This document shows positions 1-26,756 of a DNA stretch of 54,933 nucleotides, piece after piece. How positions within the stretch are numbered: position 1 is the stretch's first letter; every line of letters starts with the position of its first letter. Source of the DNA: Hormoscilla sp. Its GTDB lineage: Bacteria; Cyanobacteriota; Cyanobacteriia; Cyanobacteriales; Desertifilaceae. Made by a program: the position numbers and the translations under genes. The stretch lies in the NCBI GenBank assembly GCA_051439505.1, contig JBFRWI010000093.1, positions 1-54,933 on the forward strand, in the 5' to 3' direction. The notes under the pieces are model-generated. The model worked only from the letters and a program-made list of their open reading frames with translations, was not told where the DNA came from and did not search any database.

Positions 1-32
1 CTCTTGCATAAAATCCGGTAATTTCTGACCAA

Positions 33-41
33 TGTTAAAAT
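33..41 (+). promoter_or_regulatory. Extended -10 promoter element (TGn-TAAAAT) upstream of the HEARO-like RNA
   Basis: TGTTAAAAT lies about 7 nt before the first hairpin of the structured RNA. Confidence 0.4.
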
Positions 42-47
42 TATCTC

Positions 48-296
48 CCTCGGGAAGATGCAAGCGTGCAGGTCCAGGATCAGACCTACGTTAGGGGGGT
101 CATGACACCTAGGGGTGAGCGCCAGCCCGTAGCTCTGTCGTCTGGCTTTAAGGAACGGAACGAATGGATTTTGTAGGACCGCGTGAGTCAGATGTGAAAA
201 GCCCCTTTAACTTGACCGAGGCAAACTTTACCCCTTTTTAGGGAGAGCCGAAAGGCAGCAAAATAGTCACTGGCCACGCAGAAGAGTGGCTTTTTT
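48..296 (+). ncRNA. HEARO/omega-RNA-like structured RNA, stand-alone (no IscB ORF follows)
   Basis: Ordered motifs CTACGTT..GTCATGACACC..GCCAG..GCTCTGTCG..AAAAGC..TAAC..GAGGCAAACTTTACC. Pairings gttagggg(90-98)/cccctttaac(202-211) and tctggct(141-147)/agtcaga(186-192); GAAA tetraloop hairpin at 247-256. Confidence 0.7.
273..296 (+). terminator. Intrinsic terminator ending the HEARO-like RNA
   Basis: GCCAC-8 nt loop-GTGGC followed by TTTTTT. Confidence 0.6.
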
Positions 297-376
297 GCCT
301 CGCGGTCGGTGAGCGTCCCTGAACCGCGTCAACAGCCTATAGCACGGTATTTTCGGGAAATTACCAGTTTTTTAGT

Positions 377-1459
377 ATGCTGTACCATCCCTTACAGTCC
401 CTCAAGCAGGGACACTGGTTCAAGCTCATTTGCGGAGCCAGCTTCCAACACCGGACGGCTGTTAGAAGTCTCGTGTTAGCTTATGCCCTTGCCGGTGCTG
501 ACTGTATCGATCTGGCGGCTGACCCCGCTGTGGTGGCCGCAGCTCAAGATGCTCTTCAGGTGGCCCAGTCTCTCAGTCAGGCGGCTCAACAGCGGGGCTT
601 TGCCGGTTGTGCCAGTCCGCCCCTGTTAATGGTGAGTCTCAATGATGGTGAAGACCCTCATTTCCGCAAGGCAGAATTTAACCCTGCCGAATGTCCCTCG
701 GACTGCCCCCGTCCCTGCGAACGGGTTTGTCCAGCTTCTGCGATCGCATTTAACAAGGATAGCTTTTCCGGAGTTATAGACGGACGCTGTTATGGCTGCG
801 GTCGCTGTCTGCCCGCATGTCCCATTCAGCAGATATTTACTCGTTCTTATATATATACCCCCCAGCTCGTAGCGCCTTTATTGCTAGAAACAGGCATAGA
901 TGCGATCGAGATCCACACCCAGGTAGGACATATAGCAGATTTTCGCCGCATCTGGCAAGCAATAGCACCATTAGTAGACAAATTGCAGCTAGTAGCAATA
1001 AGCTGCCCAGATGGTGCTGACCTGATTGATTATTTGCAGTCATTATATGAAATAATCCAGCCCCTACCCTGTCAGTTAATCTGGCAAGCAGACGGGCGTC
1101 CTATGAGTGGCGATATCGGCGCGGGAACGACTCACGCCACAATTAAATTAGCTCAAAAAGTCCTAGCAGCAGAATTACCGGGCTATGTCCAGCTAGCAGG
1201 AGGAACTAACAACTACACCGTTAGCCTCCTGAAGTCAGCCGGACTCCGGTCTGAGGTTGCTGGAGTAGGCTACGGGAGCTATGCCCGCGTCTTACTATCG
1301 CCAATTATAGACCAGCTAGAAACAAGGCTGGAACAGAATTCTGAGTCACCACGCTTGGAATCATTGCCAGAACTACTCTGGCAAGCAGTGACCCTTGCTC
1401 ATTCATTAGTTGTGCAACTGAAATCGCCTATGAAAGTGCTTGAAACCTCCCATTTATAG
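377..1459 (+). CDS. ldpA: Circadian input Fe-S protein LdpA
   Basis: N-terminal WFKLICGAS, EDPHFRKAEF, two 4Fe-4S ferredoxin-type Cys clusters (CPSDCPRPCERVCP; CYGCGRCLPACP), DGRPMSGDIG. Confidence 0.92.
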   Translation: MLYHPLQSLKQGHWFKLICGASFQHRTAVRSLVLAYALAGADCIDLAADPAVVAAAQDALQVAQSLSQAAQQRGFAGCASPPLLMVSLNDGEDPHFRKAEFNPAECPSDCPRPCERVCPASAIAFNKDSFSGVIDGRCYGCGRCLPACPIQQIFTRSYIYTPQLVAPLLLETGIDAIEIHTQVGHIADFRRIWQAIAPLVDKLQLVAISCPDGADLIDYLQSLYEIIQPLPCQLIWQADGRPMSGDIGAGTTHATIKLAQKVLAAELPGYVQLAGGTNNYTVSLLKSAGLRSEVAGVGYGSYARVLLSPIIDQLETRLEQNSESPRLESLPELLWQAVTLAHSLVVQLKSPMKVLETSHL

Positions 1460-3610: not shown

Positions 3611-3697
3611 GGAGAGGTGGCCGAGTGGTTGAAGGCGCAGCACTGGAAATGCTGTTTAGTGGTAACGCTAACGAGGGTTCGAATCCCTCCCTCTCCG
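3611..3697 (+). tRNA. trnS: tRNA-Ser(GGA)
   Basis: GGAGAGG/CCTCTCC acceptor stem, anticodon arm CAGCA-CTGGAAA-TGCTG, long variable arm, GGTTCGAATCC T-arm; CCA not encoded. Confidence 0.97.
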
Positions 3698-3760: not shown

Positions 3761-4655
3761 GTAGGGTGGGCACCGCCCACCAGACAGGGCATCGGTCGGC
3801 GATCTGGTTGCGCCGGTGTACGGCGGTTGTTACATTTTACATCTTCACCGAGAATCTGTTGATGCCGTGCCCCTACAGGGTCTGACGGTTTATGGAGCGA
3901 TCGCATGTATTGGGCATAACCTGGCATGGGGCGATCGCATGTATGGAAAGAACGTATCGGGTAGGGGCGCAGCGTCAGCGTATCGGCAAATTAACGGCTT
4001 TACCCGAAAATTAGGTCTCGCCGTGCCCCGGTGGTTGATGAACGATCGCATGTATTGGGCATGACCTTACCTGGGGTGATCGCATGCATTTGCCGATCGC
4101 GTCCGGCCCGGGGCACGGCGCGATAAAATTGACTAATTTTTACGAAAAATTTATGATGCCGTGCCCCTACAGGGTCTGAGGGTTTATGGGGCGATCGCAT
4201 GTATGGGGCGTGACTGTTTATGGGGCGATCGCATGTATGTAACAAACGTATCTGGTAGGGGCACGGCATCGGCAAATTAACTGCTTTACCCGAAAATTAT
4301 ATCACGCCGTGCCCCGGTAGTTTATGAACGATCGCATTTATTGGGCCTGACTGTTTATGGGGCGATCGCATGCATTTGCCGATCGCGTCCGGCCCGGGGC
4401 ACGGCGCGATAAAATTGACTAATTTTTACGAAAAATTTATGATGCCGTGCCCCTACAGGGTCTGACGGTTTATGAAGCGATCGCATGTATTGGGCATAAC
4501 CGGGCATGGGGCGATCGCATGTATGGAAAGAACGTATCGGGTAGGGGCACAGGGTCGCGCGTATCGGCAAATTAACGGCTTTACCCGAAAATTAGGTCTC
4601 GTTGTGCCCCGGTGGTTGATGAACGATCGCATGTCTGAAGCGATCGCATGTATCG
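3761..4655. repeat. REP/BIME-like mosaic: about 3 copies of a ~290-bp unit
   Basis: GATGCCGTGCCCCTAC recurs at 3861, 4155 and 4441, with inverse GTAGGGGCAC/GC copies; multiple CGATCGCATG sub-repeats; GTAGGGTGGGCACCGCCCACC at 3761. Confidence 0.85.
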
Positions 4656-6374: not shown

Positions 6375-6466
6375 GACCTGGACCCAGGCGGTGACAACGC
6401 CCAAACCTTGTCAGGACGGAAGTAGCAGCAATAAGGGATGCTTGTCGCAGGCGTGGACTCCGGGTC
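6375..6466 (+). ncRNA. ffs: SRP RNA (4.5S), variant copy 1
   Basis: Long hairpin GACCTGG...CCGGGTC with domain IV TCAGG-AC-GGAA-GT-AGCAGC; own promoter-like TAGCAC...TGTTATAGT upstream. Confidence 0.85.
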
Positions 6467-6573
6467 TCCTCTTACTCTCGAACCCATCGACCCCGGAGCG
6501 CTCGCCAATCGCGAGCCAAAAAAATTTCTCCAAAAGAAGCACAAAAAAGGCAGTCTCATGTTAAGGTAGAGAA

Positions 6574-6667
6574 GACCTGGACCCATGCGGTTACAACGCC
6601 CAAACCTTGTCAGGACCGGAAGGTAGCAGCAATACGGGATGCTTGTAGCAGGCGTGGACTCCGGGTC
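6574..6667 (+). ncRNA. ffs: SRP RNA (4.5S), canonical copy 2
   Basis: Canonical domain IV TCAGG-ACC-GGAA-GGT-AGCAGC inside the GACCTGG...CCGGGTC hairpin; duplicated promoter region upstream. Confidence 0.93.
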
Positions 6668-6693
6668 ACCTCTTGAAAGGAGCGACAGTCAGT

Positions 6694-20371: not shown

Positions 20372-20992
20372 CTCAGACAAATGCAAGTCTTGTCCAAATA
20401 AACGCTCGTCGAACCCAGCCTCTACGCTCTCTATGACTCCAGTGGTGGGTCACAAATCGTGTTTTCGATGCATTAACACTACTTGTGACCGGATCTCATT
20501 GATTACCTCGCCGCATTAGTCGATTTTGGCATTTATGCTACGAGGTCTACTGTATAACTGGTCTTTATTTCTGCGTGAGTCCCTAATCCTGGTGCTTGCC
20601 TTGGTTAATAACAAGAGTGTGTTTGTATTAGTGATTGCTGGCTCAGCTGCGCTAGGCAGTGGACTCGGTCCCCTGTCGGTGTTGCTGTAGCACTGATGTG
20701 GCGGTTTGGATTCAATCTATCTGATGACATATTGGAAATCGTATCCGGTATGGTTGCTAGTGCTCTTGTATATTTAGTTGCTAGGCTTTTCGCTCTCAAC
20801 TAAGCAAAAGGCCAGAATCTTGAATAATTTAGTATCGGACTCCTAGATAATTTTACGGAATTACAAGTGTTTTCCGATGGCGAGGCAAATCAATTTGAAG
20901 TTTTATACTGTAACCTTCAATTCAGTAAGCAAAATACTTCGCTCATCAGACTTCATCATACTTTTTGAGGAGATAGAAGTCTCACGCTGAAG

Positions 20993-21045
20993 AAAAAAAC
21001 CCCAGTTGATAGGCTGGGGGAGATAAATCAGGATGCATCTACCAT
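20993..21045 (-). ncRNA. nsiR1: NsiR1-like sRNA copy (distal, variant)
   Basis: Minus strand GGTAGATGCATCCTGATTTATCTCCCCCAG...CTGGGG-T7; promoter hexamer is a one-mismatch DIF1 (21074-21079). Confidence 0.7.
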
Positions 21046-21155
21046 TCCTTTGTTCTCGGGTTTGCCACTACTATTCGGATAACTCGCGGTAGGGGAATTT
21101 TTTCGTTGCATAGAAGAGCAACTTTTGGGAGTGCTTGCATAGTAGATCGCAGAAC

Positions 21156-21207
21156 AAAAAACCCCAGCGGATGGGCTGGGGGAGATAAATCAGGGTGCAT
21201 CTACCAT
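21156..21207 (-). ncRNA. nsiR1: NsiR1-like sRNA copy
   Basis: GGTAGATGCACCCTGAT plus terminator hairpin and T-tract; TCCGGA at 21236-21241. Confidence 0.78.
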
Positions 21208-21317
21208 TCCTTTGTTCTCGGGTTTGCCACTACCATCCGGATAACTCGCGGTAGAGGAATTTTTTTCGCTGCATGTATAGCAACTTCTGGGAGTGCTTGC
21301 ATAGTAGATCGCCGAAC

Positions 21318-21370
21318 AAAAAAACCCCAGCGGATAGGCTGGGGGATATAAATCAGGGTGCATCTACCAT
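21318..21370 (-). ncRNA. nsiR1: NsiR1-like sRNA copy
   Basis: GGTAGATGCACCCTGAT plus CCCCAGC..GCTGGGG-T7; TCCGGA at 21399-21404. Confidence 0.78.
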
Positions 21371-21527
21371 TCCTTTGTTCTCGGGTTGGCCTCTACCATC
21401 CGGAGAAATTTCAGCTCGATGTCGGAGGGGTAGTACGTTCCCAGGCTCTGCCTGGGAACGAGGTGCTCCGGTGGAGACATCGAAGAAGAGCAACTTTACC
21501 GGAGCGATCGAGAGTCGATCGCCGAAC

Positions 21528-21580
21528 AAAAAAACCCCAGCGGATAGGCTGGGGGATATAAATCAGGGTGCATCTACCAT
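21528..21580 (-). ncRNA. nsiR1: NsiR1-like sRNA copy (proximal to hetF)
   Basis: Identical to the previous copy; TCCGGA at 21609-21614. Confidence 0.78.
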
Positions 21581-26699: not shown

Positions 26700-26756
26700 T
26701 AGCCCGCGCAGGCGGGCTTTGTTCATGTAGCCGGACCCTTTAGGGTTCGGGCGGCG
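26700..26756. repeat. Double-hairpin REP-like element; related copy in inverted orientation at 48489-48545
   Basis: AGCCCGCGCAGGCGGGCT and GTAGCCGGACCCTTTAGGGTTCGG hairpins. Confidence 0.7.

Follow-up and report, generated by a model that had tools for sequence, protein, structure and literature searches.

Ends of a Protein-Less Omega-RNA Miniature in Hormoscilla ldpA Suggest Movement of an IscB System by an IS607-Type Serine Recombinase

An omega-RNA element within the start of ldpA

The first few hundred bases of the window (the whole stretch of 54,933 nucleotides of Hormoscilla sp. analysed here, which begins with base 1 of contig C93) carry an omega-RNA scaffold at ldpA, and the question arises whether this RNA is a gene in its own right or part of something mobile and, in the latter case, which enzyme would move it. 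An earlier note had proposed a self-contained transcription unit with its own promoter and terminator. A covariance search with the HEARO model RF02033 bore out the scaffold itself, with a match at window 65-231 of 73.4 bits (E 1.6e-14), though this score lies under the gathering cut-off of 83 and the first 52 positions of the model were unmatched. There were 14 HEARO matches genome-wide, one sister copy scoring 84.9 bits. The folding energy of the whole RNA was no better than that of shuffled sequences (z -1.3; -0.03 in a second run). The note was also right that the locus has no iscB gene, the ORF listing showing none and giving LdpA as the next ORF, and that a GNRA hairpin is present. We compared the locus with full-length copies on contigs C2 and C41, in which the omega-RNA precedes iscB. 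The features are as follows.

1..379 (+): miniature non-autonomous IscB-derived element with omega-RNA only and no protein (sharp ends in multiple copies)
1..2 (+): CT core dinucleotide on the omega-RNA side, with which the scaffold begins (junction comparison)
1..66 (+): guide-adaptor (first) stem, 1-9 pairing with 58-66, with one extra base at 65-66 here (covariation)
15..45 (+): repeats spaced about 10 bp, the first CCGG 12 nt from the core, the third being the TGTTAAAAT variant; in register with the family-A IS607 TnpB end, which they resemble on the opposite strand (end comparison)
65..231 (+): HEARO/omega-RNA core scaffold (RF02033, 73.4 bits)
241-245 (+): relic of the iscB ribosome-binding site (comparison with C2 and C41)
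247-256 (+): GNRA hairpin GCC-GAAA-GGC, where the iscB start codon would stand (sequence; comparison with C2 and C41)
258-267 (+): relic of iscB codons 1-4, without the ATG (comparison with C2 and C41)
273..296 (+): intrinsic-terminator-like hairpin GCCAC/GTGGC with T6 (scan; in miniatures only)
349..379 (+): other element end, hairpin-free, with two repeats in inverse orientation to those of the left end, 12 nt separating the outer repeat from the core
377..1459 (+): ldpA, its frame open from the ATG that the element supplies (ORF listing, Pfam name, congener comparison)
380..382 (+): target trinucleotide CTG, that is, the second CT core plus G; ldpA codon 4 and predicted TAM (18/18 right junctions, empty sites)

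The unit boundaries of the earlier note (33-296) proved wrong, as the mobile element occupies 1-379, is followed by the target CTG, and has its scaffold stem from base 1. The genome contains 23 copies of the left end, for which 22 left flanks are available, all different and with no fixed base, and 18 copies of the right end, whose junctions have only CTG in common (18/18); the element ends are sharp and the flanks random apart from CTG. Two copies, on C2 and C41, contain an intact iscB (421 aa, open frame, catalytic motifs) whose product matches NF040563 at 478 bits and whose closest named records are from Hormoscilla (87-93%) and Arthrospira platensis (78%). The remaining 16 right ends belong to miniatures, which stand in mixed orientation relative to host genes; with the CTG counted in, assembled miniatures are 357-449 bp long, as against 1551 bp for a full iscB copy. 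A metagenome contig (L139) holds a separately derived 350-bp miniature without the terminator. Small hairpin insertions of 20-45 nt were seen inside the miniatures on C43, C203 and C113 (L008, L009 and L029); they resemble the small dispersed repeats of cyanobacteria. The left flank on C193 and the right flank on C41 appear to be the halves of an alpha/beta-hydrolase-like frame split at CTG by an iscB-bearing copy.

LdpA is a clock-input protein. Its native GTG start and codons 2-3, which precede the element, were found at the terminus of contig C6, and this flank is 87-92% identical to the DNA upstream in congeners, where ldpA starts with an uninterrupted GTG ACT TAT CTG TAC in 4/4 genomes. 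From this precise empty site and the match of the C6 flank, we place the element between ldpA codons 3 and 4, that is, inside the start of ldpA and not upstream of the gene as had been noted. Its last three bases (377-379) supply an in-frame ATG for ldpA. The right junction is bridged in DNA run X1, which possibly represents the source sample, and the empty ldpA site is present in run X16. The synteny comparison showed no positional conservation, the element being absent from ldpA in all four congeners. Together with the 22 different left flanks, this is the pattern that the earlier note had itself named as refuting its reading. The omega-RNA is part of a selfish miniature and not a domesticated stand-alone gene.

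Elsewhere in the window, tandem matches to bacterial small SRP RNA were found at 6375-6469 and 6574-6670 on the plus strand (47.6 and 61.2 bits), and a single match to the CRISPR direct repeat DR28, which barely passes the cut-off, at 26700-26723 on the minus strand. Four NsiR1 matches lie about 160-210 nt apart at 20991-21579 on the minus strand; NsiR1 is known from heterocyst-forming cyanobacteria and would be unexpected in this lineage. Repeated units at 3890-4600, between a tRNA (3611-3697) and the Rubisco-activase gene, give near-identical short ORFs.

Element ends and candidate transposases

According to the accessible text of PMC6188088, IS607 elements combine an imperfect subterminal inverted repeat and short phased repeats with a dinucleotide that recurs at both junctions and in the target, and the same end features are given in the accessible part of 10.1101/2023.11.20.567912. 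The element described here has CT at each junction and imperfect inverted repeats in its ends. Distant IscB relatives have a GTCA...hairpin left end and a right end composed of a hairpin and an ATGA-like motif, and the closest relatives show repeats of about 10 bp in place of these hairpin ends; the usual 5' transposon-end stem, suspected earlier to be remodelled, is indeed replaced. Single-stranded DNA folding of the 80 nt after iscB gave a median of -7.0 kcal/mol for repeat-ended elements (n = 28) as compared with -15.1 kcal/mol for Y1-type elements (n = 20), with overlapping ranges. No strong subterminal hairpin was found in the window ends (-3.2 kcal/mol for 340-382 and -0.6 kcal/mol for 1-42), nor was a 4-5-nt target of the GTGR/ATGA type without repeated bases, only CTG being fixed.

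The cores were compared at 26 loci from genus g195 and G496 genomes, 25 of which have iscB. All 25 iscB loci showed the same core at both junctions (17 CT/CTG and 8 CA/CAG); 20 of these loci were parsed by script and the other five by inspection, and there are four pairs of loci with a common flank. The 2-bp core is also found in the empty site, and most cores differ from the usual GG. A further type starts at CC in 6/6 copies and has 10-bp repeats; no second right end of this type was found, and its TAM is accordingly read from single junctions. Four IscB elements (L049, L050, L187 and L196) have ends that show neither the Y1 type nor the repeats with CCGG, and L049, which stands among Y1-type proteins, could represent a separate end change.

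The likeness to IS607 extends to the sequence of one family, here called family A, a transposon of about 1.8 kb with a serine TnpA (NF033518) and TnpB that occurs in this genome, its congeners and g195 genomes. An end profile built only from 50 omega ends of IscB elements was used to search 69 IS607 loci (230 kb, with some loci present twice). Its best matches, on the opposite strand, fell on the family-A TnpB end (E 1.7e-5, 6e-4 and 2.5e-3), as compared with 0.044 for reversed loci, 0.14 for Y1-type IscB ends and 0.09 for 10 Y1 transposase loci. A profile of the iscB 3' end performed more weakly, its best match (E 2e-3) being also at the TnpB end of family A. The left end of the window equals the TnpB end of one such element (L211) at 19 of 27 terminal bases without gaps. 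When the end sequence itself was searched, 26 sites were found, of which 21 are the element's own ends, one is a family-A end and four are other sites. In the same orientation, the core of family A in the genus is TG and that of the window element AG. The other IS607 families in this genome (C151 and C125/C170) were rejected as partners, as their ends differ.

Both family-A tnpA copies are broken in this 93%-complete assembly, by a stop on C213 and into two pieces on C1; genome G002 has five intact copies. No serine tnpA was present at any of 122 iscB loci (1.5-2.5 kb per locus). An autonomous copy with the same left end was found neither in this genome nor among solo left-end remnants in congeners, in 10 metagenome matches (four unrelated), or in 400 phylum genomes, where 64 others matched the left end at 1-3 mismatches; the 29 of these that were examined had no iscB, tnpA or tnpB. 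A circle joint (right end to left end) was not seen in the contigs of four runs, contigs being prone to drop rare forms. Solo left ends of 18-27 bases (L082-L087) occur in congeners and, in this genome, on C77, and that of L082 abuts the right end of a family-A element. Three loci (L276 in G537, L249 and L255) have ends of the type seen in the ldpA element and, after them, HEARO-like sequence with no IscB match, and possibly represent an IsrB-like or decayed element.

Judging from the ends, an IS607-type vehicle for IscB is probable, and they suggest that this IscB system is moved by an IS607 serine recombinase and not by its known kind of transposase. An ordinary IS200/IS605 (Y1) miniature, of the PATE or stand-alone omega-RNA kind, with diverged ends and moved by the Y1 TnpA of this genome, appears unlikely. 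In its favour, the IscB elements described in the accessible parts of PMC4810608 and the Meers preprint (10.1101/2023.03.14.532601) are all of Y1 type, ORF-less omega-RNA elements are known from the latter, and an intact IS200 Y1 transposase is present in this genome; however, the subterminal hairpins are lacking, the ends differ from the GTCA...hairpin and ATGA-type ends of the Y1 relatives, the 2-bp core co-varies at both junctions, and the end profile matches IS607 and did no better than E 0.09 in the 10 Y1 loci. We also consider it improbable that the same miniature is moved by another enzyme, either a DDE transposase with a 2-bp duplication or an IS110/IS1111 recombinase acting at the CT core. 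The CT at both junctions and the imperfect inverted repeats in the ends would suit such enzymes, and IS110 elements have a CT core; the inverted repeats, however, start 12 nt inside and not at the termini, only three target bases are fixed whereas IS110-type bridge-RNA targets are long, and the ends resemble IS607 family A.

First stem, TAM and transcription

In the IS607-type reading, the transposon end also forms the beginning of the omega-RNA. The scaffold core opens with TGCAG, and the bases immediately preceding it pair with bases 2-7. This first-stem pairing was kept in 169 of 186 cells (31 distinct strand pairs from 62 elements), with compensatory changes, as compared with 66 and 59 cells when the register was slid and no more than 142 when rows were shuffled, the shuffle test being inflated by related rows. 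Stem position 2 was paired in 31/31 variants, as T-A, A-T or C-G, and the folding centroid pairs 5-9 with 58-62. Since the first stem starts at the element edge, the guide should be the upstream host flank, outside the window, and the segment 48-70, suggested earlier as a possible guide, is the 3' strand of that stem and not a guide. A target search with 48-67 found no site outside the elements at up to two mismatches; shorter pieces gave three and two sites, at chance level. The third base of the left end was never G in 28/28 CT/CA variants, which is what a CTG/CAG TAM that leaves occupied sites uncut would predict.

A quick tree of 61 IscBs contained a branch of 32 rows without Y1-type members (support 82). 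In a reduced tree of 33 of the 61 IscBs, from which near-copies and rows with unclassified ends were left out and which was midpoint-rooted, the 15 repeat-ended IscBs formed one branch (97) nested among cyanobacterial Y1-ended ones. Between eight CA-type and 10 CT-type IscBs, the identity equalled that within the groups up to alignment column 350 and fell to 0.42 in columns 401-435, and all 15 fixed differences lie in columns 380-422. The IscB of this genome has the CT-type tail. The C terminus is the TAM-interacting domain of IscB according to the accessible text of PMC9755519; because the solved IscB structures gave no alignment over the C-terminal tail, this role is assigned to the tail only tentatively. 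By these comparisons, the C-terminal domain of IscB appears to change with the target, CTG versus CAG, and as the CA type is a single clade, the domain change would be one event.

As to transcription, the earlier note had claimed an extended -10 and a terminator. The sequence of the former, TGTTAAAAT, is present at 33-41; however, no sigma-70 site was called there, it occurs in only 7 of 23 left ends, and the C2 copy with iscB lacks it. What was proposed as a promoter is a minority variant within the end repeats. The terminator hairpin with its T6 stood up better: the scan alone was not significant (one found, 0.8 expected), and the stem is intact in 15/16 miniature copies while the loop shows eight variants. 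All 15 genome-wide matches to the terminator pattern lie inside miniatures; the terminator is a gain of the miniatures and is probably functional. In the host flank, 57 nt upstream, there is a sigma-70-like site (one found versus 0.8 expected) whose hexamers and spacing are kept in the four congeners.

In runs X15 and X19, the element is covered from base 1 to about 270 by RNA contigs that come from related strains, contigs being unable to show starts, ends or levels. Their depth drops past about 300, from 1516 to 30 in X15 and from 33 to 0.4 in X19, while the DNA run X1 continues, and the X15 depth at base 38 came entirely from sequences without the -10 variant; given that depth in contigs is an unreliable measure and that the strains are not the same, these are weak hints only. 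A domesticated RNA forming a unit of its own, driven by its own promoter, guided by the internal segment 48-70 and regulating either ldpA or some fixed target, is very improbable and largely refuted, for although TGTTAAAAT and the terminator conserved in miniatures would fit it, the copies are dispersed at 22 left flanks, the ldpA of congeners lacks the element, the -10 variant is in the minority, and 48-70 is a stem with no target found.

Proposed cycle and relation to known systems

Taken together, these data make it likely, on the evidence of sequence comparison, that the locus is a protein-less miniature of an IscB/omega-RNA transposon with IS607-type ends, moved and maintained as follows. 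A serine TnpA encoded elsewhere would bind the 10-bp-spaced repeats, excise a circle via the 2-bp core and integrate it at CTG. One copy inserted between ldpA codons 3 and 4. The host ldpA promoter about 57 nt upstream would transcribe the flank and the scaffold, and the terminator would end the RNA near 296; it would thereby reduce ldpA transcription, while the last ATG of the element would keep the frame open. Use in trans by IscB, raised in the earlier note, is possible given the two intact iscB copies found in the genome, and IscB from these copies may bind the RNA, with the host flank as guide and CTG as TAM. With this guide and TAM, only the empty ldpA allele (flank-CTG) would be cut, since the occupied site reads flank-CTC and would be spared, and repair would copy the element back.

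We lean, by a little, towards a wider scenario in which a cyanobacterial IscB clade switched from Y1 to IS607 ends; the core would then serve both as the start of the omega-RNA stem and as the start of a three-base TAM (CTG, CAG and probably a CC type), the last approximately 45 residues of IscB would re-tune the TAM to the core, and terminator-bearing miniatures would use both enzymes in trans and overwrite empty alleles, here that of ldpA.

The miniature as such is of a known kind, because stand-alone omega-RNAs acting in trans (PMC10691335) and ORF-less omega-RNA elements with their trans use (Meers preprint, 10.1101/2023.03.14.532601) are already described in the accessible parts of these sources. 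As in the HEARO/IscB omega-RNAs (RF02033) and stand-alone omega-RNAs covered by the accessible text of PMC10691335, there is a scaffold core with a predicted 5' guide from flanking DNA, and there is no protein in the element and an IscB elsewhere in the genome. Unlike known HEARO/omega-RNAs, the first stem here is built from a non-Y1 transposon end, and the miniatures have their own terminator. With the ISC/PATE elements, as far as the accessible parts of PMC4810608 and the Meers preprint (10.1101/2023.03.14.532601) describe them, our elements share non-autonomous IscB-only and ORF-less forms, termini in common with an oppositely oriented TnpB element and a target motif adjoining the iscB 3' end. 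They differ in having no hairpin ends, in a CTG/CAG target in place of GTGR or ATGA, and in that the TnpB partner with common ends carries a serine TnpA (NF033518). In its accessible text, PMC4810608 tied ISC to Y1 by termini common with an oppositely oriented TnpB element, an argument that the likeness to the family-A end mirrors. The 2-bp core at both junctions is shared with IS607, IS1535 and ISC1926 (PMC6188088, accessible text) and CboIStron (10.1101/2023.11.20.567912, accessible part), as are, with the IS607 family, short phased direct repeats, an imperfect subterminal inverted repeat and low target specificity. In contrast to that family, the elements have IscB/HEARO in place of TnpB, no tnpA in cis, and cores AG and TG (in IS orientation) besides the usual GG.

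The searched literature, which consisted mostly of sources outside subscription papers and supplements, yielded no description of an IscB with IS607 ends; its accessible texts pair IscB only with Y1 transposases, and the accessible part of PMC9956272 makes no link between IscB and IS607. IS607-type IscBs were probably missed because surveys sought tnpA in the neighbourhood, and these elements have none. For TnpB, Y1 as well as serine transposases are documented as partners; for IscB, to our knowledge, Y1 only. If our reading is true, the missing combination of IscB and a serine transposase is filled, and this Cas9 ancestor can change its vehicle, rebuilding the first stem of its RNA from the new transposon end. 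It further predicts 420-aa IscBs with short CTG/CAG TAMs, including a natural IscB pair differing almost only in the TAM-reading tail, which would be useful for compact editors.
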